Assembly (NCBI GenBank): GCA_017639185.1
Contig: GCA_017639185.1_4892.1
Strand: one strand, 5' to 3'
Source: Escherichia coli
Lineage (GTDB): Bacteria > Pseudomonadota > Gammaproteobacteria > Enterobacterales > Enterobacteriaceae
DNA: 53,474 bases
Shown here piece by piece: positions 3,180-28,738 of this stretch; the first letter of the stretch is position 1; every line of letters begins with the position of its first letter. Below the pieces are notes generated by a model. The model made no database searches, was not told the DNA's origin, and saw only the letters and a list, made by a program, of their open reading frames with translations. The position numbers were made by a program, and so were the translations under genes.

Positions 3180-5312
3180 TTATGCTGCATCGACGGACTG
3201 ATAAGAGCTGTCCGACGCTGTAGCGTTTCTCACAGTTACTGTGGCACCAATACGACATCCACCACTACCAACACCAGTAATAACACCAGCATTACTTACA
3301 GTAGCGACAGTATCGTCTGTAGTTGTATACTGAATGCTATAGCCTGCGTCTGTCTTAGCGTATTCAGGTCTAACAGTTACAACGAGCTGCTGCGTGTTAC
3401 CAACAGTAAGTGCAGGCAGCGAATCCGTAGTAACAGAAAGCTCAGACACGTAAGGAGATGTTGTACCAGAAGCAGCAACACCGTTCATTACAACGTTAGC
3501 AGTAATAGTTGCTGAACCTTCAGACTTAGCAGTCATCAAGCCATTTGCATCTACACTAATGATAGAGTCATCTGACGAGCTATAAGTAACAGTAACGCTC
3601 TTAGAGTCCGACGGATAGATCTCAACATCAAGTTGTTTGGTGTTACCCACAAGCCATTCAGCATACTGCGGATAGACCTGTACCCTCTCAGAAATTTGTG
3701 CCCAAGCAGCTGCGCTAATGTCAGCGCCATTACTAGTTGCGTAAATCCAGATATTACATCCGCCCTCAGCAACACCAGTTACAACGCCAGACGAATCAAC
3801 AGTTGCAATAGCTGGGTTAGCAGATTCGTAACGAATATCAGTTAGATCCGCGTCAGACGGGCTAACAGTGTAAGTGAACTGCTGAGTACCACCGACTGGA
3901 ATACCACCAAGACCATCTGGTGTAATAACAGCCACCTCTGTGCAAGTAGCTACAAACGAAGCAACAAGTCCACCGTCGTCTGTTGTAACTGTAATAGTCG
4001 AAGTTCCAGGAGATTGACCGTATATAACTCCGTTAGTGTCAACAGTAACAGCGTCTGGGTTTGAACTATTGTAGCTAACTTTTTTGTTGGTTGCGTTGTC
4101 AGGTGTTATAACAATTTTAGTCTGCACCTGATGGCCGGCGCTTACTTTAGTCGGAGAGTCAGGAGCCCATGCAACATCCGTAACTGCGATGCTGGGGTCT
4201 GTAACTTTAACCTCGATTCTATCAGTAAAGTTCCCGTCGTTAGTGATAACAGTAACATCAATTAAGCCTGCAGCGTTAGCGGTTACCAAACCAGCTTCAG
4301 TCACAGACGCAACTTCTGATACAGGAGCACTCCATACAACAGATGGGTCAGTAGCATTTTCAGGAGTCACAGTGGCATGTAGCTGAAGAGTGTCACCAAC
4401 TTCCATGGAAGCTGTATCGCCTTCGTCAATACTTACACCGGTAACATTTACAGCAGGTACCCTGACTATAATGTCAAGCGTGTCAGTCTTATCACCGTCA
4501 TTAGTCTTAACAGTAACAGTGGCATTACCAGCTATAATACCCGTAACATTTCCGTCAGTATCCACAGTTGCTACATCAGGCTCACTGCTTTCGTACGTCA
4601 CTGTTTTGTCAGTGGCGTCTTCTGGCGATATACGAATACTAGTCCCAGCTGTGCTTCCGATATTAACGTTAAGAGGCGACTGAGTAAGAAACTCAACTCC
4701 TGTAACGTGTACAACAGGCGGAATAACAGTTACAGTACAGCTATCGAATATAGAGCTGTCAACACCGTACTGTACGTTTACAGTTGTTTCACCATCTCCA
4801 ATGGCAGTGACAAGCCCGTTGTCGCTAACGACAGCAACAGACTCATCATCTGAAATCCAGTAGAAATCAAGATTATCTGCATTAGCAGGTAAATAGGTGT
4901 ATGTCAGGCGTTGAGTCTTGCCCTCTTCAAGCGTCACACTTGTGGGAGACACTGTAACAGATTCAACAAGGATAGGTGCCCGAGCAATGTTAAACTTTGC
5001 CCGTACTGTATAACCGCCGTCAACAGACGTACCAGTCACGTATGCAACACCTTCCGCCAGTGGCTTCACAAATCCGAGCTCATCAACAGTGATAACGTCC
5101 GGGTCGCTAGATTTCCATGCCATACCACGCTCAGTAGCGTTGGTTGGAATGTAACGCACAACTAGCTGAACAGGGTCATCACCCGCGACGATTGAGTACT
5201 CGTAGTTGGAAAGCATTATACCTTCCAGCGGAACATTGGGGGTAAAACCTTTACCCCCGTTGCTCTTACTGAACTGGACGTCGACAACCTCATTAAGTGG
5301 AAGCGACATCAA
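3180..5312 (-). CDS. virion protein with about 7-8 tandem bacterial Ig-like (Big_2-type) domains
   Basis: 710 aa with a recurring unit ending in VATVD..G.VTGV..G.ATVTV (for example VATVDTDGNVTGIIAGNATVTV, IATVDSSGVVTGVAEGG, VAVVSDNGLVTAIGDGETTVNV). Confidence 0.65.
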   Translation of the reverse strand: MMSLPLNEVVDVQFSKSNGGKGFTPNVPLEGIMLSNYEYSIVAGDDPVQLVVRYIPTNATERGMAWKSSDPDVITVDELGFVKPLAEGVAYVTGTSVDGGYTVRAKFNIARAPILVESVTVSPTSVTLEEGKTQRLTYTYLPANADNLDFYWISDDESVAVVSDNGLVTAIGDGETTVNVQYGVDSSIFDSCTVTVIPPVVHVTGVEFLTQSPLNVNIGSTAGTSIRISPEDATDKTVTYESSEPDVATVDTDGNVTGIIAGNATVTVKTNDGDKTDTLDIIVRVPAVNVTGVSIDEGDTASMEVGDTLQLHATVTPENATDPSVVWSAPVSEVASVTEAGLVTANAAGLIDVTVITNDGNFTDRIEVKVTDPSIAVTDVAWAPDSPTKVSAGHQVQTKIVITPDNATNKKVSYNSSNPDAVTVDTNGVIYGQSPGTSTITVTTDDGGLVASFVATCTEVAVITPDGLGGIPVGGTQQFTYTVSPSDADLTDIRYESANPAIATVDSSGVVTGVAEGGCNIWIYATSNGADISAAAWAQISERVQVYPQYAEWLVGNTKQLDVEIYPSDSKSVTVTYSSSDDSIISVDANGLMTAKSEGSATITANVVMNGVAASGTTSPYVSELSVTTDSLPALTVGNTQQLVVTVRPEYAKTDAGYSIQYTTTDDTVATVSNAGVITGVGSGGCRIGATVTVRNATASDSSYQSVDAA

Positions 5313-19518: not shown

Positions 19519-19755
19519 AATGTTACCCACAAGTAGGAGACCGTGAGGCCGTTTGATGATTCACATTAATGATAGCGCGTGGAGGAGAGAAAGTACACCA
19601 CTTTTTAGTGAGTGTCTACACAATTTCCGAAAAATATAAAAAAATTTTAGAGGGGCTTCACTTATTATTGTGTTAAGCAAAAGGTTAGCTCCTGCCGTAT
19701 TACTCTGATGATGATTGGTCCTGATAAGGAGAAAATACCAAAAAATAAAAAAAAT

Positions 19756-19828
19756 TCCGCTGGCTCCTGGCGGGTAGCACCCTTGCGAAATTACCCCCCG
19801 CCGCACCTATTTCGATTGAAATGATTAC
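19756..19828 (+). repeat. control-region repeat unit A1
   Basis: About 70 bp, roughly 70% identical by eye to the unit at 19933..20003. Shared blocks CGGCTCCT, GCACCC, ACCCCCGCCG, ATTT.GATTGA, ATTAC. Confidence 0.6.
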
Positions 19829-19932
19829 TATGGTAACTATTGCGATTGATACAATTACCGTGTGAACTACTTCGGCCGTTATAGTACAAAGCGTCTATAA
19901 TTCAGATTGAAATTATATTTTTATAAATAATT

Positions 19933-20003
19933 TCGCCGGCTCCTTTAAGTGGCACCCCTACGTTACTATAACCCCCGCCGACCATTTTGGATTGAGTAAT
20001 TAC
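19933..20003 (+). repeat. control-region repeat unit A2
   Basis: Second copy of the unit at 19756..19828. Confidence 0.6.
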
Positions 20004-20149
20004 ATGCGAAACTATATCAATTGCATATGAGAACCACTCTCAATCGCAAGTGATTATCATTTCTAAAAACTTGCATAAACTTGCAATTCTTTTATGTACA
20101 ATCAATAGCGATTGGTCTATTATATATTTATTGAATGTGATGACTGATT

Positions 20150-20166
20150 GACCAGTCTAACTGGTC
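20150..20166. promoter_or_regulatory. perfect palindrome (candidate operator)
   Basis: GACCAGT-CTA-ACTGGTC, 7-bp arms. Overlaps a TTGACC -35-like hexamer. Confidence 0.45.
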
Positions 20167-20312
20167 TGGAGGATATTGGTATGGTTTAGATTTGGTAGGT
20201 AGTACTTAACCAGTCAACAGGTACATCTGGTAGATGTCAATGGTACCTTTTGCTCTTTAACAATTTGGTAACATGTTTCTTGTTGATAGTAACACTAGTA
20301 ATAGTTTCAACC

Positions 20313-20338
20313 AGTGACTATTGGTATCAATAGTCACT
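20313..20338. promoter_or_regulatory. perfect palindrome (candidate operator upstream of first early gene)
   Basis: AGTGACTATTG-GTAT-CAATAGTCACT, 11-bp arms with 4-bp spacer, about 30 bp upstream of the ATG at 20367. Confidence 0.5.
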
Positions 20339-20366
20339 CCTGGAAACTAATACAAAGGTAACTATT

Positions 20367-20669
20367 ATGAAACTGAACAATATCACGTCTGACGTAGAAA
20401 TGCAAGTCACAATCATGTCAATAGTTGAAGACATGCGCCAAGTGTGTATTGAAAGCAACATCTGTTATGATAACGTACAGCAATTATTTGTTGAACTTAT
20501 TACAGGTGCTGAAATAACTGATAATAAACTCTTGATTGACTTGGTCCGCGAAAGACTGATCTTAATTGGCGAAAACTTTGCGGCAGATGGCTTTAATGAA
20601 ATTTATCATGATGACTTCAGGCATTTGTTGAAAGTCGTACAAGCTGTTGAAAACGCAAGCGCGAAGTGA
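20367..20669 (+). CDS. early hypothetical protein
   Basis: 100-aa ORF, first gene right of the control region. AAAGG RBS. Confidence 0.5.
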   Translation: MKLNNITSDVEMQVTIMSIVEDMRQVCIESNICYDNVQQLFVELITGAEITDNKLLIDLVRERLILIGENFAADGFNEIYHDDFRHLLKVVQAVENASAK

Positions 20670-22897: not shown

Positions 22898-23065
22898 ATG
22901 ACATTGCTCGACGTGTTAATCAACGCGATTTATCTGGTGTTACCGATCTTTTTTCTGCCGGCACTTCTGACGATGCGGTATTACGCGAAGCGGAGCGGCG
23001 CCAAGCAGAAATACAAAGAACTGCAAGCTGCTGGAATTATCAACCCCCGAAAACTGTACCGTTAA
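22898..23065 (+). CDS. small predicted membrane protein (alternative to track ORF 22876..23121)
   Basis: Hand translation MTLLDVLINAIYLVLPIFFLPALLTMRYYAKRSGAKQKYKELQAAGIINPRKLYR. AAGGA RBS 8 nt upstream. One hydrophobic helix. Confidence 0.35.
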   Translation: MTLLDVLINAIYLVLPIFFLPALLTMRYYAKRSGAKQKYKELQAAGIINPRKLYR

Positions 23066-23120
23066 CCTGGGTTGACATGACAATTTGGTTATTGAATAAA
23101 CTTGGAATAAGGAGCAAATA

Positions 23121-23300
23121 ATGTTTAAATTCTTACAACGTAACCCGGTCAAAGGTGGCATGCAATACTGGGTGGATATTCATGGCGGTGAGTATATGAT
23201 GATCGTCCGCGATGGTAAACCTGCTGAAAGCTCTTTCGCTAAAGGTTGCAACGTTTACAACCAACTGTTTGAGTTCCTGGTTGAAGGCGATTACTTGTGA
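23121..23300 (+). CDS. small early protein (59 aa, below track threshold)
   Basis: ATG at 23121 preceded by AAGGAG. Translation MFKFLQRNPVKGGMQYWVDIHGGEYMMIVRDGKPAESSFAKGCNVYNQLFEFLVEGDYL. Confidence 0.5.
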   Translation: MFKFLQRNPVKGGMQYWVDIHGGEYMMIVRDGKPAESSFAKGCNVYNQLFEFLVEGDYL

Positions 23301-23482
23301 TTGGCTTAATCCTGGCAACATGTGTGGCTACTCATGATTGTAGTTACAAAATTGTTGAATCCAACCCTGAATGGACTACCGTTGAACAATGTGCCGCCGA
23401 TAGTCCATACACCTTACTGAATCTTGGTATTATCCCTGCCAAAAATCAGCGTGTTATTTGTGACGAGCTGAAACAAGATTAA
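23297..23482 (+). CDS. small protein with N-terminal hydrophobic segment
   Basis: GTG start overlapping the upstream stop. N-terminus IGLILATCVATHDCS. Confidence 0.35.
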   Translation: MIGLILATCVATHDCSYKIVESNPEWTTVEQCAADSPYTLLNLGIIPAKNQRVICDELKQD

Positions 23483-23910
23483 TTGACGTGATATTGAGTG
23501 CCGGGCGCAACGTAATAGTTGTAGACCCGGCAAAATTGTTCCCATGTTAATTCTACTAGACCCACAAAGAGGCGATTTGATGCCTCGTTAAAAGTCGTGC
23601 CACTTGGAAAACAGTCAATCACATCAGCCTTATTCATCACCACGGTAGGCTGTTTTCTTGGTAGTTCGTATATCAGCACTGGCATCTTGTTCTGAGCCTT
23701 TGCCGATGCCGCACACTGTCTCCACCATGTTCCGATAGACTTGGTATTGTGCTTCTTCAGTTCAACACTGAAAAACGGCACACCCAGCAAGTCATCCCCG
23801 CCATTAATAGACTGTTGAAGATTGCGCTCAACAGTTAATCCGAACGAGCTATTAAATTTTTTAGCCATTTTACGCTCAAAGTTCTGCCCCTTGGCTCTAA
23901 TATTTACCAT
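23479..23910 (-). CDS. PD-(D/E)XK nuclease, Hjc-like Holliday-junction resolvase candidate
   Basis: KGQNFERK...GGDDLL...FSVELKK pattern (E, D, ExK spacing) read by eye. Stop codon shares bases with the convergent plus-strand stop at 23479..23482. Confidence 0.35.
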   Translation of the reverse strand: MVNIRAKGQNFERKMAKKFNSSFGLTVERNLQQSINGGDDLLGVPFFSVELKKHNTKSIGTWWRQCAASAKAQNKMPVLIYELPRKQPTVVMNKADVIDCFPSGTTFNEASNRLFVGLVELTWEQFCRVYNYYVAPGTQYHVN

Positions 23911-24410
23911 GCACTGTTTCCTTTTAAAATCTGGACTACGCGGTCCAAAGAGTTACCATTTTCTACTTGTTTTTTCCATACTGTCATAATTCTTGACTTA
24001 AGCCTTGCTCTTCCGTGGCAGTCAGCTGTAGCATACGCACGGAGTAAGTCTATTTCATCAGACAGTAGATCCAGCGCTGGTTGAAGCTCTGGTGCAACAT
24101 AATAACCATTCCCACGAATGGTTGGGAATACTTCTTCGTATGCCCAGCGCTGAAATGCTTTAGCTGATTCAAGATGTGAACCGAATATAGCCTGATAAAT
24201 ACCAGGTTCAGTTACCCATACGGCTCCTTTGTCATCAGTAATTTTATAATCGCTGTCTAACCTTTTATAAAGTTTTTTCGAGTGACTGTAGCCTAGCGCT
24301 TTAGATAAATCGCTTCCTTTAACAACAATGAGGGGAACCATTTTGGTTCCTCTATTAATTGATGAAAATGTGATATTTTTACCTTCAAATACTTTTACAA
24401 TTGGATTCAT
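23904..24410 (-). CDS. Bro-N domain protein (antirepressor-like)
   Basis: N-terminal FEGKNITFSSINRG...VKGSDLSKALGYSHSKKLYKRLDSDYK matches the Bro-N pattern. Start uncertain (24410, 24425 or 24473). Confidence 0.5.
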   Translation of the reverse strand: MNPIVKVFEGKNITFSSINRGTKMVPLIVVKGSDLSKALGYSHSKKLYKRLDSDYKITDDKGAVWVTEPGIYQAIFGSHLESAKAFQRWAYEEVFPTIRGNGYYVAPELQPALDLLSDEIDLLRAYATADCHGRARLKSRIMTVWKKQVENGNSLDRVVQILKGNSAW

Positions 24411-24671
24411 AGTTGCACAACTCATCTGTTGAATAATAAATATATTATAACACACACTAACATACAATAACATAGTAAATATCACCGAAGCTTGCCACGC
24501 CTGGCTTTAGACATGCCTACGAATTATTTATCAGTCCGGTTTTTTATTATTTTTCGCCAGCGTAAATTTTTTTTCATCCGGTTCTGATATTAATAAAGAG
24601 ATAAACCGGATCATACATATAGACGCCTCTAAGTAGCTGTTTTTATTACTTCTAATATAATTAATAATATA

Positions 24672-24692
24672 TAATAATAATAATAATAATAA
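24672..24692. repeat. (AAT)n microsatellite inside an AT-rich intergenic region
   Basis: ATAATAATAATAATAATAATAA read directly. Confidence 0.8.
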
Positions 24693-24869
24693 ATAAATAT
24701 ATACCCCCTTTTATCCGGTACTTGGATCCCCTTATTACCCCCCTTTTTCTTTATAAAGGGCTCCATATATTTACTAATTCATGTAAAAAGAAAAGAGTAT
24801 ATAAAACAGTAGCTTAAGTGCACTTAATTCGAAAAACACGGTTTATTTATTCCATAACTAGTCTACCGG

Positions 24870-24922
24870 AGCAAAAAGAGTATATAAAATAAGGGCTTAC
24901 GTATTTTACTACATAAGCCCTT
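24870..24922 (-). terminator. intrinsic terminator after the primase-helicase gene
   Basis: Inverted repeat AAGGGCTTA (24891..24899) / TAAGCCCTT (24914..24922) immediately after the stop at 24927. T-rich run follows on the minus strand. Confidence 0.55.
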
Positions 24923-24926
24923 GATT

Positions 24927-27461
24927 TTACTTAAGTTTCTTGGCTTCGTCGTATCCCCGTTCAGTTAAACAGTAGATATTTGCCGATTTCCCTCTTGTGG
25001 GTTTGTATATTTGAACTGCTAAATAGTCCTGGTCAATCATATCCTGCAGCATACCGTCAATAACCTTGTTATTAGCGGTTATATTAAAGCCATAATTGGA
25101 CTTGAACCAACTTAATGATTGCCGGATAGCATATATGCTAAGCCCGTTCATTTTCAGATGGTCTTCCCGTAAGCTTCTTACAACACCTTCAGGATAATGC
25201 TTAACAATACCGTTCCAGCCTCTTTTGGTGTAAAGGGCCAAAATGTCCCTGTAGACTTTGAGGAAGCCGTCAACTACTTCAGCGTTGGTAGTCGGAGGTG
25301 CGACTATCCTGCTTGTGTTATTGACCCAGGCGGTTATACAACGAAGAACGTATTTGTAAGCCCATTCGATGTTGTCCCTGGTCATTACAGGAGCATCCCA
25401 GTTGTCGAGTAAGCCAATCAGTGCTGCTATGTTGAATACATACTCACCCATTCGGCCCACAAAGGCAGATGCTACTTCGTTGTCCCTGTAATACTGGCGC
25501 ATGTCATTAATATTGCACTGGTATTCGTACAGGAAGTCGTCATCATCCGATTCGTCGTAAATAGGAATCGGGTCATGCCTTAGTTTACCGTTAGGCGGGA
25601 TAGCATTCACATAAGCGATTGCTTCCAGCTTCTCAATCAGTTCCTTTGAAAAGGATGTACGGCGAATCTGCTGGCGACGTCCTACTTTCTCAGGTTTGGC
25701 AAACTCCGCTCGTTCATAGTTAGGGATGAACAGGAAGCGGGGCAAAAAGCCACTTGAGAAGTCTTGCTTGCGGGTGTTGTCAAGAATAAGCTCTTGAGTG
25801 GAGTCACCCAGGATAGAGTAGCACGGTTCGCTTACTGTCTTGACATCATTGTCAGCATTAGCACGTTTGATACCTGTCAGTATACCGCCAACCTTACGCT
25901 TGGTTGAAGCGTCCATCAGAGCTTTCTGAAAGTTGTCCGGGTTGTTAGGATTCATGCGTAAGCCTGAACCTAAAGCCAGACCAAATTCAGGATAGAACAG
26001 CTGGACTGAATGGTATGACGGGTTGGACATCAGTTCAGCAAACGTCCTGGTTGCAAAAGTCTGCTCCCTTGGAATACGATTAAGGCTGATAGGCGATGTG
26101 TCAGGTAAACCAGCCTGGATTTGTGGGAACATTTCGGTATACAACGATTTACCGATTGATGAACCACCCACAAGAATGATGTTGGTTACCAGGAAGTTAG
26201 CATGACCGCCTACTGGACAAACATACTTACGACCAGCGCAGTTGCTCAGGATGTTAAGAGCTGTGCCAATTGCATAGTCGTTAACCCTGTTAGCCGGAGA
26301 TATGTTATCCTGTATCTCAGCAATAAGCCGTTTAAACCCGGACGGGGCCGTTCTGACAAATACATCAGATGGCAGAATATCGTCGTTGACTTTGAACTCA
26401 ACGTTCTCAGCCAGTGATACCCCAGAATTCTTGGCTAACTCTTTGTTAATGTCAAGAGCAAACTTGGTCTTAACGAATAAGCCGTCACGTTGCATCTCTT
26501 TCAGCACAGTCTTACCGACACGACTGAACCACTGATGGTACTTGTCAACAGACAGGCTACGCCGGCTAGGACGACGACCTTCGTATGCTGCAGCTTTGCT
26601 GGCCATAAAGATGCGTTGTGTAACTTCATAGTTACGGGTTACACGAAGCAAGTCTTTTAAGATACGGCTTAAACGTTCAGAACCGTCATTACTCACACCA
26701 ACACCGTCTGGTGCATGCTCATTCAGATAGTGTTCTAAAGCCCAGCGAGTATTGTCGGCTAACTGTTCGTACAGCTCTTTGTCATACTCTTCGCCACGGT
26801 CTTCGTCTTGCTCAAACTCAACATCAATGTCAGGTGCGCTTGATTCAAGAAAGAACTTCTCAATTGCTGCATGCCATTCACGGGCTGAAACAGGATTAGC
26901 ATTGAACTCACTCAACACGTTGCCCGTCATTACCAGGAACATCTCAGCCTTCTGGATTTTGATGTCCAGTTGTTCGTCTTTCTCTTTAGATGTTGCTGCA
27001 GTCCAGGGTAAAGGGATTGCAATGTGTTGCCCTTTGCCAGAGATTGACGTCTCGGCATAAGCACCACGGGTCCCCTCAATTATCGCCTTGTGGGTAGCTT
27101 CAATGTCTGGGTTATCTTCATGGTTGTCCAGGTCAACAAAGTACCACTGGCGAGGAACAACCAAAGCCGGCACAAAGGTGATATTCCCCTGCACAGCTTT
27201 AATCTTCATTTCACGATTGCGAATACAACGTGCCAGGGCGTCGTCGAAAGTCATCCACTCTTCAGGCACTGTTGTGCTGAAGGAACGGCCTGATGGCGCT
27301 CTTGCAGGTTTCTTCGGTTTGGATTGAACTTCAAGAGTCTCGTCTTCGTACGTTAGCTCAAAGATAGCCCAGCGCTTCATATCTTTGAAGACTTGGGGAA
27401 TCCCTTCTGGCTTAAAGTATTTCAGACCGAGAATATCACTCGGCTGACTCGTCATTGTCAT
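24927..27461 (-). CDS. primase-helicase (archaeo-eukaryotic primase N-terminal domain plus C-terminal P-loop NTPase; D5/P4-like architecture)
   Basis: AEP motifs YFVDLDNHED (DxD) and SISGKGQHIAI (sGxGxH). Walker A LVGGSSIGKS mid-protein. 844 aa. Confidence 0.6.
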   Translation of the reverse strand: MTMTSQPSDILGLKYFKPEGIPQVFKDMKRWAIFELTYEDETLEVQSKPKKPARAPSGRSFSTTVPEEWMTFDDALARCIRNREMKIKAVQGNITFVPALVVPRQWYFVDLDNHEDNPDIEATHKAIIEGTRGAYAETSISGKGQHIAIPLPWTAATSKEKDEQLDIKIQKAEMFLVMTGNVLSEFNANPVSAREWHAAIEKFFLESSAPDIDVEFEQDEDRGEEYDKELYEQLADNTRWALEHYLNEHAPDGVGVSNDGSERLSRILKDLLRVTRNYEVTQRIFMASKAAAYEGRRPSRRSLSVDKYHQWFSRVGKTVLKEMQRDGLFVKTKFALDINKELAKNSGVSLAENVEFKVNDDILPSDVFVRTAPSGFKRLIAEIQDNISPANRVNDYAIGTALNILSNCAGRKYVCPVGGHANFLVTNIILVGGSSIGKSLYTEMFPQIQAGLPDTSPISLNRIPREQTFATRTFAELMSNPSYHSVQLFYPEFGLALGSGLRMNPNNPDNFQKALMDASTKRKVGGILTGIKRANADNDVKTVSEPCYSILGDSTQELILDNTRKQDFSSGFLPRFLFIPNYERAEFAKPEKVGRRQQIRRTSFSKELIEKLEAIAYVNAIPPNGKLRHDPIPIYDESDDDDFLYEYQCNINDMRQYYRDNEVASAFVGRMGEYVFNIAALIGLLDNWDAPVMTRDNIEWAYKYVLRCITAWVNNTSRIVAPPTTNAEVVDGFLKVYRDILALYTKRGWNGIVKHYPEGVVRSLREDHLKMNGLSIYAIRQSLSWFKSNYGFNITANNKVIDGMLQDMIDQDYLAVQIYKPTRGKSANIYCLTERGYDEAKKLK

Positions 27462-27768
27462 TGCTGGTTACCTTAGAAGTTGGCTTGTAGTAATAAGATG
27501 ATTCAGTGTGTTGACGTACTGTCAAATAGCCTTCCTCTACAAGTCGGTCAAGACCTTCCTTGATTTTAGCCCGGGCTGCTTCGGGGTCTTTATAATACTC
27601 CGCTGCAGGTACGAGTGTTAGTGGTGATTTGGTAAAGTAGCGAGTTGGTAACTCTTTATTGAACAGGCCGACTTTTGTAATACCGCGTTGCTTGCAGGCA
27701 TACTCATTGCCTTCAGCGAGTAGCTTAATACCGTTGCGAATATGCCGCAACAGTTTTGGCTTTATCAT
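27436..27768 (-). CDS. hypothetical protein
   Basis: 110-aa ORF overlapping the primase start. First gene of the leftward island. Confidence 0.4.
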   Translation of the reverse strand: MIKPKLLRHIRNGIKLLAEGNEYACKQRGITKVGLFNKELPTRYFTKSPLTLVPAAEYYKDPEAARAKIKEGLDRLVEEGYLTVRQHTESSYYYKPTSKVTSNDNDESAE

Positions 27769-27921
27769 TGAGTCTCTCCTCTTGTTTGTGGGGCTCTCAT
27801 TATATACACGTTATTAAACCAGAGTAAATAGACTTTTATGTATTTTATACATTTATATCTATTTACTTTCCCCTCCTTTATATACATAATAGACGTACAT
27901 TCTGCTAAGGAGATACAACCA

Positions 27922-28359
27922 ATGTTTCACACACTCAAGACCTTTCAGGGCGTCAGCCCTAATACCGACGAACAGGTAATTGAAGAGCACTTTGTTACCT
28001 TCCGTACCAGCGACATCGTCGACATTAGCGTAATTGTACACAATGATACTGCCGAAATTGTATACCTTACTTTGCGTGGTACCCAGGACGAAGACGGTGC
28101 ACCACCTTGCATGACCTTCAGACGTGAATGGCACGCTGAAGCTGTTGAATCACTGGTTGCATTGCGTGATGCGCTTCATATTACGCCTACTTATTTCACT
28201 GACAATGACGGTAGCTTATTCCCGTACAGCAATGTCATGTATGTCAACATCAAAACACGAACCATGCATCTGGTAAATGGTGTTGCTATTGCACTCACCA
28301 AAAACGAGTTTGACCGGTTTTATGACGAGTATCGTAACTGGATGGACTTATATAAATAG
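27922..28359 (+). CDS. hypothetical protein
   Basis: Start at ATG 27922 (AAGGAG RBS) rather than track start 27838. Confidence 0.5.
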   Translation: MFHTLKTFQGVSPNTDEQVIEEHFVTFRTSDIVDISVIVHNDTAEIVYLTLRGTQDEDGAPPCMTFRREWHAEAVESLVALRDALHITPTYFTDNDGSLFPYSNVMYVNIKTRTMHLVNGVAIALTKNEFDRFYDEYRNWMDLYK

Positions 28360-28369
28360 GAGCAATTAA

Positions 28370-28738
28370 GTGAGTAACCAACCGTCTATGTCGTTAGTGT
28401 ACCAGGCACCAGCTAAGACTGGTGAGTTTGCAGGTACTATCCACGTAATTCATGCGGAAGAAATCATCAGCATTGCATTCGTGGAAAAAACAAAGAAAGA
28501 AAAAGCTTTACGCGTCACCACTAAAAGTGGTATAATAGACGTAACGGATATTGCTGCGGGCCAAGCGCTACGTACAATGTTCAATAACTATTGTTTACTG
28601 ATCGGTGCAACTATGCACATGCAACCTGAGGAAACAACTGATGGCACTGACCCCACAAGAACTGGAATCGATGGACACGGAACAGCTGTACGACAAGCTG
28701 GCGAATCTGAACCGCTGGATGGCACAAGCGAAAGCTGA
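28370..28738 (+). CDS. hypothetical protein (3' end overlaps next gene)
   Basis: GTG start with GGAG RBS. Last ~30 codons overlap the 28641 gene in another frame. Confidence 0.4.
   Translation: MSNQPSMSLVYQAPAKTGEFAGTIHVIHAEEIISIAFVEKTKKEKALRVTTKSGIIDVTDIAAGQALRTMFNNYCLLIGATMHMQPEETTDGTDPTRTGIDGHGTAVRQAGESEPLDGTSES

Follow-up and report, generated by a model that had tools for sequence, protein, structure and literature searches.

An opposite-strand primase-helicase block of Rosemountvirus phages as a replication-initiation unit with a candidate origin in its spacer

The window analyzed here is a 53,474-nt stretch of DNA from the Escherichia coli assembly GCA_017639185.1 (contig GCA_017639185.1_4892.1), in which four minus-strand genes (23479-27768) interrupt the plus-strand early arm of a phage genome. 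Our results indicate that this four-gene block, apart from its Bro-N gene, is an ancestral replication-initiation unit of Rosemountvirus/Loughboroughvirus-type phages. Its central gene encodes a primase-helicase, and directly 3' of that gene lies a conserved non-coding spacer which is a plausible replication origin, the case for and against being about evenly balanced. A first-pass annotation of this DNA, made from the letters alone, had proposed either a replication-initiation module with an adjacent origin or a laterally acquired cassette. The module is well supported, by the only primase, the only ring-helicase candidate and a winged helix; the origin is plausible from sequence anatomy and by analogy with Staphylococcus aureus pathogenicity islands (SaPI); and the cassette is rejected for the block as a whole, a Bro-N gene alone being acquired. 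Taken together, an ancestral initiation unit with its origin in the spacer is the explanation that we consider best overall, and we lean towards it modestly. The features on which the argument turns are:

24927..27461, minus strand: primase-helicase of 844 amino acids (aa), with an AEP prim-pol and helix bundle, an MCM-like AAA+ ATPase and a C-terminal winged helix
24516..24926, no strand assigned: conserved non-coding spacer directly 3' of the primase-helicase gene, GC about 0.30, candidate origin
24653..24703, no strand assigned: 51-bp AT-only run with (AAT)n, the longest in the 53-kb window, candidate DNA-unwinding element

The primase-helicase and its genomic context

In a nucleotide search, positions 23000-28500 were 99.0% identical over their full length to Salmonella phage emiel and 93-98% identical to many other Rosemountvirus genomes, with 60 phage records matching in all. 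By sequence, the window is a Rosemountvirus, a BP63-like myophage of Salmonella and E. coli. One of the matching records, 'Listeria phage 220426122051' (PP583539.1, host Listeria monocytogenes), had 95.7% identity over 96% of the query, and its host label looks like a mix-up or contamination.

Annotation transfer from phage SPLA11 placed the structural, lysis and a few nucleotide-metabolism genes on the minus strand and the early/replication arm on the plus strand (about 20.4 to 43.7 kb), so that plus-strand genes flank the block on both sides. The four minus-strand open reading frames (ORFs) listed in the first pass were all present (23479..23910, 23904..24485, 24927..27461 and 27436..27768), and the gene names given there, primase-helicase, Bro-N and Hjc-like, are correct by domain, profile and fold evidence. 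Products of the plus-strand arm include Sak4 (AAA_24), DUF669, dCMP deaminase, a superfamily 2 (SF2) ResIII/DEAD helicase and a family-A polymerase; no second primase, whether Toprim/DnaG or AEP, and no hexameric helicase was found in this arm. As far as can be tested, the claim that the block holds the only primase therefore stands, and by sequence the block would also supply the only ring-helicase candidate.

Single-sequence searches with the primase-helicase against PDB, Pfam and NCBIfam returned nothing or sub-threshold matches, with DUF3987 at 22.5 bits against a cutoff of 27. The 844-aa protein matched PHROG 3022 'DNA primase' from end to end (E 3e-184). A word-indexed homologue search gave only 7 clusters, while an exhaustive HMMER search gave 584 cluster representatives at E <= 1e-3, of which the best 150 are mostly 720-880 aa long. 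In a 62-sequence family alignment both aspartates of the AEP motif I DxD (FVDLDNHED; D110, D112) are invariant, as are S139 of motif II SxH (SISGKGQH) and the Walker A lysine K438 (GGSSIGKS, residues 432-439, in the MCM-like AAA+ fold), and H146 of motif II is at least 90% conserved. The NrS-1 HBD domain PF22763 was found in 46 of the 62 family members and DUF3987 in 43.

The N-terminal part (residues ~1-290) is an NrS-1-type AEP prim-pol and helix-bundle region, and the NrS-1 prim-pol fold was its top structural and profile match. The family profile matched SaPI5 PriRep5 (7OLA) with E 5e-62, a match limited to the prim-pol/helix-bundle part, and the NrS-1 prim-pol N300 structures with E ~1e-52. 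At the other end a PadR-like winged-helix domain (residues ~770-844) was detected in a region that is fairly conserved among relatives; a sequence-profile search of this domain against PDB gave spurious matches only. The name primase-helicase is thus correct, and more precisely the protein is a prim-pol joined to an MCM-like ATPase and a winged helix. Its primase, helicase and hexamerisation activities are predicted from these motifs and domains.

The spacer 3' of the primase-helicase gene as a candidate origin

The first-pass annotation had placed AT-rich repeat DNA at the bounds of the block. This DNA is in fact internal, between the Bro-N and primase genes (24411..24926, GC 0.30), and we counted the spacer as 441 bp, or up to 516 bp with the Bro-N start at 24410. 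The repeats described there were all present. An (AAT)/(TAA)n microsatellite occupies 24653..24692 (13 copies, 85% match), the 16-bp element AAAAGAGTATATAAAA has exactly two exact copies (24791..24806 and 24874..24889), and five CCGG sites (24536, 24578, 24606, 24715 and 24866) fall within the 441 bp, compared with 0.24 predicted by local composition.

Two properties of the spacer are kept across relatives down to 38% primase identity. Every one has a non-coding gap of 475-670 bp (without inserted genes) after the primase, and all have an AT-only tract of 29-54 bp at the equivalent place, the sequence of which differs. In the window this tract is 51 bp long and the next longest AT-only run is 24 bp. 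Around it, short motifs are enriched, both of them chosen post hoc. Five of the 16 genome copies of ACCGGA lie in the 441-bp spacer (expected 0.09), at 24535(-), 24577(-), 24605(+), 24714(-) and 24865(+); two of them, in opposite orientations, are on the primase side of the tract, and beyond it are three more, of which two share an orientation and one is reversed. Of the 45 genome copies of AAGGG, six are in the spacer (expected 0.32), and every one of these lies between the AT tract and the primase gene. In Lokivirus Halfdan, six TATAAGG repeats in both orientations surround an AT-richer patch directly after a primase/helicase gene of 21% identity (locus 4802-5102), and this array, from its sequence, looks like an iteron-type origin. 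No Rfam families or tRNAs were found in the spacer. A 45-aa ORF at 24629..24766(-), which reads through the microsatellite as poly-Tyr, is probably not a gene, as LPSEYT and other relatives do not preserve its reading frame.

In SaPIs, Rep and PriRep5 are self-loading helicases whose C-terminal winged helix binds iterons of 5-6 nt (PMC9371898), and these iterons lie directly downstream of the rep ORF, on each side of an AT-rich centre (PMC9371898). By analogy, initiation in the window phage would proceed as follows. A host-type promoter in the divergent region would drive a leftward early operon of the small protein and the primase-helicase, with transcription ending at a strong terminator. 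The winged helix, possibly aided by the small protein, would bind AAGGG on the primase side and ACCGGA on both sides, and the 51-bp AT-only tract between the repeats would melt. The hexameric helicase would then load itself, and the family-A polymerase, a product of the opposite strand, would receive its initial primers from the prim-pol. Downstream, the Hjc-like nuclease would resolve branched replication or recombination intermediates. Which of the spacer repeats is bound, and by what, is proposed here from the SaPI example.

Several observations weigh against an origin in the spacer. Loughboroughvirus and the more distant relatives largely lack ACCGGA, with 0-2 copies, though the winged-helix region is fairly conserved, and the AAGGG boxes are only partly conserved among relatives. 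As the motifs were picked after viewing the sequence, their Poisson values are optimistic. The terminator and nuclease promoter that the spacer has to hold explain part of its conservation. The phage encodes Sak4 and a Cas4-like exonuclease, and recombination-dependent replication could dominate. The ATPase of PriRep5 is described as SF3-like, whereas the one here is MCM-like, and the profile matched only the prim-pol part of PriRep5. The evidence for an origin at this place is analogy and sequence anatomy, and a second region, 19530-20367, would be an equally reasonable site and is a credible alternative.

That region is an 840-bp non-coding, low-GC, repeat-rich stretch between the leftward and rightward arms. 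It holds GATTGA-type repeats (a 30-bp unit x2.1, 19807-19869) and two similar units of ~80 bp, and it coincides with the cumulative GC-skew minimum. It is also the equivalent of the gap between clusters E and A in the sister-genus Loughboroughvirus phage S144, where short terminal repeats were mapped by restriction, and it is the probable location of the genome ends. GC skew, which the first pass had suggested as a check, carries no independent replication signal and merely follows the coding strand. Its cumulative minimum (~19.5 kb) and maximum (~43.5 kb) match coding-strand switches, and it is uninformative on the origin because the local dip in the block follows gene orientation; we therefore discarded it as an origin indicator.

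The spacer may then do no more than punctuate transcription and receive mobile genes, with the origin elsewhere (e.g. at 19.5-20.4 kb) or with replication that is mainly recombination-driven, a reading we regard as possible but on the doubtful side. It would account for the strong terminator of the primase operon, the TTTACA-17-TACAAT nuclease promoter conserved in relatives, the insertion of Bro-N or HNH endonuclease genes at this slot and the poor conservation of the short repeats between genera, and it agrees with the presence of Sak4 and the Cas4-like exonuclease and with the coincidence of repeats, GC-skew minimum and mapped S144 ends at 19530-20367. However, a terminator and a promoter need ~100 bp, not 440-670 bp, in genomes that are ~92-93% coding (PMC7432712), and a promoter cannot explain why an AT tract of 29-54 bp is kept, in composition only, at primase identities from 38 to 99%. 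Moreover, the site 3' of a winged-helix initiator-helicase matches the characterised SaPI origins, and iteron-like repeats stand at the same place in Halfdan.

It is very improbable that the AT-rich spacer instead marks the physical genome ends or a packaging site. The records of BP63, UPF_BP2, AEV23 and AV127 do begin or terminate close to the primase stop, at a distance of no more than a few hundred bp, but the BP63 record (NC_031250) breaks exactly at the AT tract and lacks ~55 bp of it, other records are arbitrarily permuted, and S144 restriction mapping puts the ends at the equivalent of ~19.5-20.4 kb. On the BP63 break pattern and the S144 mapping we rejected physical ends in the spacer; the break in this 'complete genome', at window positions 24640-24705, is probably an assembly gap in low-complexity DNA.

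As a separate observation, an A-rich run followed by TTYMCGCYGGC occurs in the spacer (24556-24571(-)) and twice in the region of the alternative site (19749-19764(+) and 19925-19940(+)). At the spacer site the palindrome CGCCGGCG is conserved in relatives, and the window has CGCTGGCG. Sharing of the AAAAATTYMCGCYGGC-like motif between the spacer and 19.7-19.9 kb was not significant by shuffling (4 matches vs 2.2 expected).

Ancestry of the block and acquisition of the Bro-N gene

At ten loci the block was collinear: small gene, primase, spacer and nuclease follow one another in this order, and both flanks are encoded on the other strand. These were birk, SPLA11, yarpen, LPSEYT, SA173, ES2-BCU-3, KE25, SE1_KM, Erwinia phage SOI901 and a metagenomic contig, the last without the nuclease. 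Primase identity to the window was 79% in KE25, 44% in SE1_KM, 43% in SOI901 and 38% in the metagenomic contig, which keeps the small gene, primase and spacer and has a different gene after the spacer in place of the nuclease. Two further records, BP63 and AEV23, have their start or end within the spacer and do not show the block whole. At 21-22% primase identity, Lokivirus Halfdan and Septimatrevirus PaMx42 have a small gene and a primase-helicase divergent from a MazG/Sak4 replication arm, and in both a non-coding gap follows the primase-helicase, with an annotated terminator in PaMx42. In the sister genus, the opposite-strand 'cluster D' of S144 (ORF68-70) was described as a separate transcriptional unit for DNA metabolism (PMC7432712).

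Against this background, acquisition of the whole four-gene block as a lateral cassette, inserted inverted into the early arm, deserves next to no credence. Such an event would fit the opposite orientation of the block, the low GC around 23.7-25.3 kb and the presence of a Bro-N gene, which is typical of mobile or temperate elements. Yet the block was not acquired as a whole, because it has the same place and orientation in relatives down to 43-44% primase identity (SOI901 and SE1_KM among the ten loci) and its composition is typical: the primase, small gene and nuclease have tetranucleotide z of -0.8 to +0.4 and GC content at third codon positions (GC3) of 0.43-0.48, as is usual for this genome. 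Further against the cassette are the small gene, primase and spacer retained in the 38%-identity contig, the divergent small gene and primase of Lokivirus and Septimatrevirus, the role of the block as supplier of the only primase, and the lack of direct repeats at its flanks and of an integrase or recombinase. The k-mer check proposed in the first pass was accordingly split, with these three genes typical and the Bro-N gene and spacer deviant. Its comparison with relatives found the block collinear and present throughout, with Bro-N alone patchy, which is most of what the first pass had itself named as speaking against its reading.

The inserted gene is as follows:

23911..24515, minus strand: Bro-N cassette (coding sequence 23904..24410, 168 aa), recognised by Pfam Bro-N, composition and distribution

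The Bro-N domain PF02498 scored 48.3 bits against a Pfam cutoff of 25.6. The mechanically called ORF (23904..24485) starts at a GTG at 24485; relatives annotate 168 aa, that is, the ATG at 24410 (phage birk), which is most likely the real start. The cassette has its own extended -10 promoter, TGtTATAAT (24452..24444). Its GC3 is 0.29, as compared to 0.48 for the primase, 0.48 for the nuclease and 0.43 for the small gene, and tetranucleotide distance is raised over 23.5-25.75 kb, i.e. Bro-N and spacer (z 3.0-4.1; Bro-N z 4.1). At 80% identity or more, Bro-N was found in only 16 phage records, among ~60 relatives, and the next-best matches had <40% identity and came mostly from phages of Gram-positive hosts.

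Bro-N is absent in yarpen, BP63, SA173, ES2-BCU-3 and KE25, where TTTACA-17-TACAAT precedes the nuclease; the alignment suggests that the cassette replaced this ancestral nuclease promoter. In LPSEYT (locus 2410-2910) and CF2 (KY608966, 122-619) the slot of Bro-N is occupied by an HNH_3 homing endonuclease, and in further relatives by other small ORFs. A short ORF in nenneke and in phage 8-19 matches only the C-terminal ~50 aa of the Bro-N protein, at 51% identity. No repressor or integrase is listed in the Rosemountvirus annotations examined, and Bro-N, labelled 'anti-repressor', appears to be a dispensable mobile insert. Evidently, the slot between spacer and nuclease is a hot spot for mobile genes, and Bro-N is the only foreign gene of the block, a later acquired insertion with both a patchy spread and a deviant composition.

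Nuclease, small upstream gene and transcription signals

The remaining features of the block and its edges are:

23479..23910, minus strand: Hjc-like PD-(D/E)XK nuclease of 143 aa (Pfam PDDEXK_15), putative junction resolvase
23479..23482, no strand assigned: TTAA with overlapping convergent stops (4-bp overlap)
27436..27768, minus strand: protein of 110 aa, phrog_28429, no known family, with a 26-nt overlap with the primase start
27799..27828, minus strand: sigma-70-type promoter TTTACT-18-TATAAT of the leftward small gene and primase operon (consensus scan, 10/12 matches)
27862..27890, plus strand: divergent sigma-70-type promoter TTTACT-17-CATAAT of the rightward replication arm (consensus scan and alignment)
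24891..24922, minus strand: intrinsic terminator hairpin of the primase operon (terminator scan)
24791..24806, minus strand: second copy of the 16-mer, TTTTATATACTCTTTT on this strand, part of a 29-nt imperfect direct repeat

The nuclease, whose start overlaps the Bro-N stop (ATGGTGA), matched Pfam PDDEXK_15 with E 7e-18 (65.5 bits, cutoff 27). Its AF2 model had a predicted local distance difference test (pLDDT) score of 77.9, and in a Foldseek search of the PDB the top 18 matches to this model were all archaeal Hjc (E 9.7e-4 to 5e-2, TM 0.34-0.57). The catalytic residues E12, D40 and E50-L-K52 are invariant in 19 homologues. Many GenBank records name the protein 'RusA-like Holliday junction resolvase', a name that stems from the phrog_244 label. 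We tried and rejected this identity, as Pfam gives PDDEXK_15 only and no RusA family, and the structural matches are to Hjc. RusA has an unrelated fold, and, judged by family and modelled fold, 'RusA-like' is a propagated misnomer for an Hjc-like nuclease that would act as a junction resolvase.

At the left edge of the block there is no intergenic DNA. As described in the first pass, the convergent stops share bases: the plus-strand TAA (23480..23482) and the minus-strand stop (23479..23481) overlap in the palindrome TTAA, and the same 4-bp overlap is annotated in birk, yarpen, SPLA11, BP63, KE25, SE1_KM and SOI901. The nuclease gene contains, close to its 3' end, an inverted repeat, TGCCGGG...CCCGGCA, with a 20-nt loop and no T-run (23499-23530). 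Located where convergent transcription meets, it may serve to pause or terminate rightward early transcription.

The small gene lies directly upstream of the primase, overlapping or abutting it, in every relative including Halfdan and PaMx42. Sequence similarity of the small proteins between distant lineages was undetectable, with none between the 110-aa protein and its PaMx42 counterparts. Weak, sub-threshold hints of a helix-turn-helix or winged helix were seen only in the counterparts from Halfdan and the 38%-identity contig, and the 110-aa protein has weak similarity to the primase C-terminus. It may be a small DNA-binding accessory of the initiator.

The right edge (27769..27921, GC 0.32) is a divergent-promoter region which is largely conserved across genera and lacks the spacer repeats. 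In an alignment of nine genomes both hexamers of the leftward promoter are conserved across genera, and the rightward promoter has CATAAT and the first five bases of its -35 box, TTTAC, in all nine, with full TTTACT in 7 of them. From consensus and conservation, both are predicted to function as promoters.

The terminator hairpin has a predicted RNA fold of -23.6 kcal/mol (z -7.8), and the 16-mer copy at 24874..24889 forms its U-rich tail. The hairpin is kept across Rosemountvirus and Loughboroughvirus with compensating arm changes; SE1_KM, the most distant, aligns poorly here. The 24791..24806 copy has no stable hairpin of its own in RNA folding. A unit of the type TAAGYCCTT...TTTTATATAC recurs in the alignment of relatives. 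With up to 3 mismatches, AAAAGAGTATATAAAA gave 7 matches vs 0.57 expected. We also considered the 16-mer as a phage-wide promoter motif and rejected it: only the two copies are exact, the 3-mismatch matches elsewhere look unrelated, and in a promoter scan no promoter-like site overlapped either copy.

Significance

In itself the block is ordinary; ~60 genome records already carry its annotation, and a description of it as a cluster exists for the sister phage. What is new is that the domains of the initiator are identified, the nuclease is assigned to the Hjc-like type, a slot for mobile genes is recognised and a definite site is proposed as the origin. A 'DNA primase' is reassigned to a three-function initiator of the SaPI PriRep/NrS-1 type, and the spacer becomes a concrete origin candidate for phages that are widely proposed for biocontrol of Salmonella and E. 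coli. If the hypothesis is true, it would provide an origin-prediction rule for the large and poorly studied primase-helicase family retrieved by HMMER, and the replication initiators of phages and phage satellites would become linked.

Comparison with known systems

The 'cluster D' of S144 is the same opposite-strand gene cluster as the block in the window. It differs in that S144 has no Bro-N gene, and the S144 study assigns no origin and makes no primase domain dissection (PMC7432712). The 143-aa nuclease resembles archaeal Hjc (2WCW, 1GEF, 2EO0) in its fold and in the residues E...D...ExK, but shows no more than 11-17% identity to it and carries an additional helical region at the C-terminus.

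With gp28 of NrS-1 (6A9W, 7RR3; PMC7102993) the primase-helicase shares the order prim-pol, helical domain, ring NTPase, although the window protein itself falls below the Pfam thresholds of this family. gp28 is the replicative polymerase of NrS-1, whereas the window phage has a separate family-A polymerase, and the 'Head' and 'Tail' of gp28 were reported as novel folds, whereas the C-terminus here is a PadR-like winged helix. The Cch/Cch2 helicases of the staphylococcal cassette chromosome mec (SCCmec) and MCM-family helicases were also compared; Cch has no fused primase, and sequence similarity was not detectable.

The differences from SaPI5 are that the sequence match to PriRep5 is confined to the prim-pol and helix-bundle region, that the gene belongs to a virulent myophage of Gram-negative hosts which encodes a family-A polymerase of its own, and that the spacer repeats are not regular iteron arrays, their binding being predicted by analogy. 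The likeness lies in the overall design. As in PriRep5 (7OLA), one polypeptide carries an N-terminal prim-pol, a central ring ATPase and a C-terminal winged helix, and as in the SaPI origin, the DNA immediately 3' of the gene is non-coding and AT-rich in the middle, with short repeats to either side. We tentatively suggest, as a possibility falling somewhat short of probable, that Rosemountvirus, Loughboroughvirus, Lokivirus, Septimatrevirus and others share a divergent cassette with a self-loading initiator in the style of SaPIs and other phage-inducible chromosomal islands (PICI), and with the origin 3' of the initiator's own gene.

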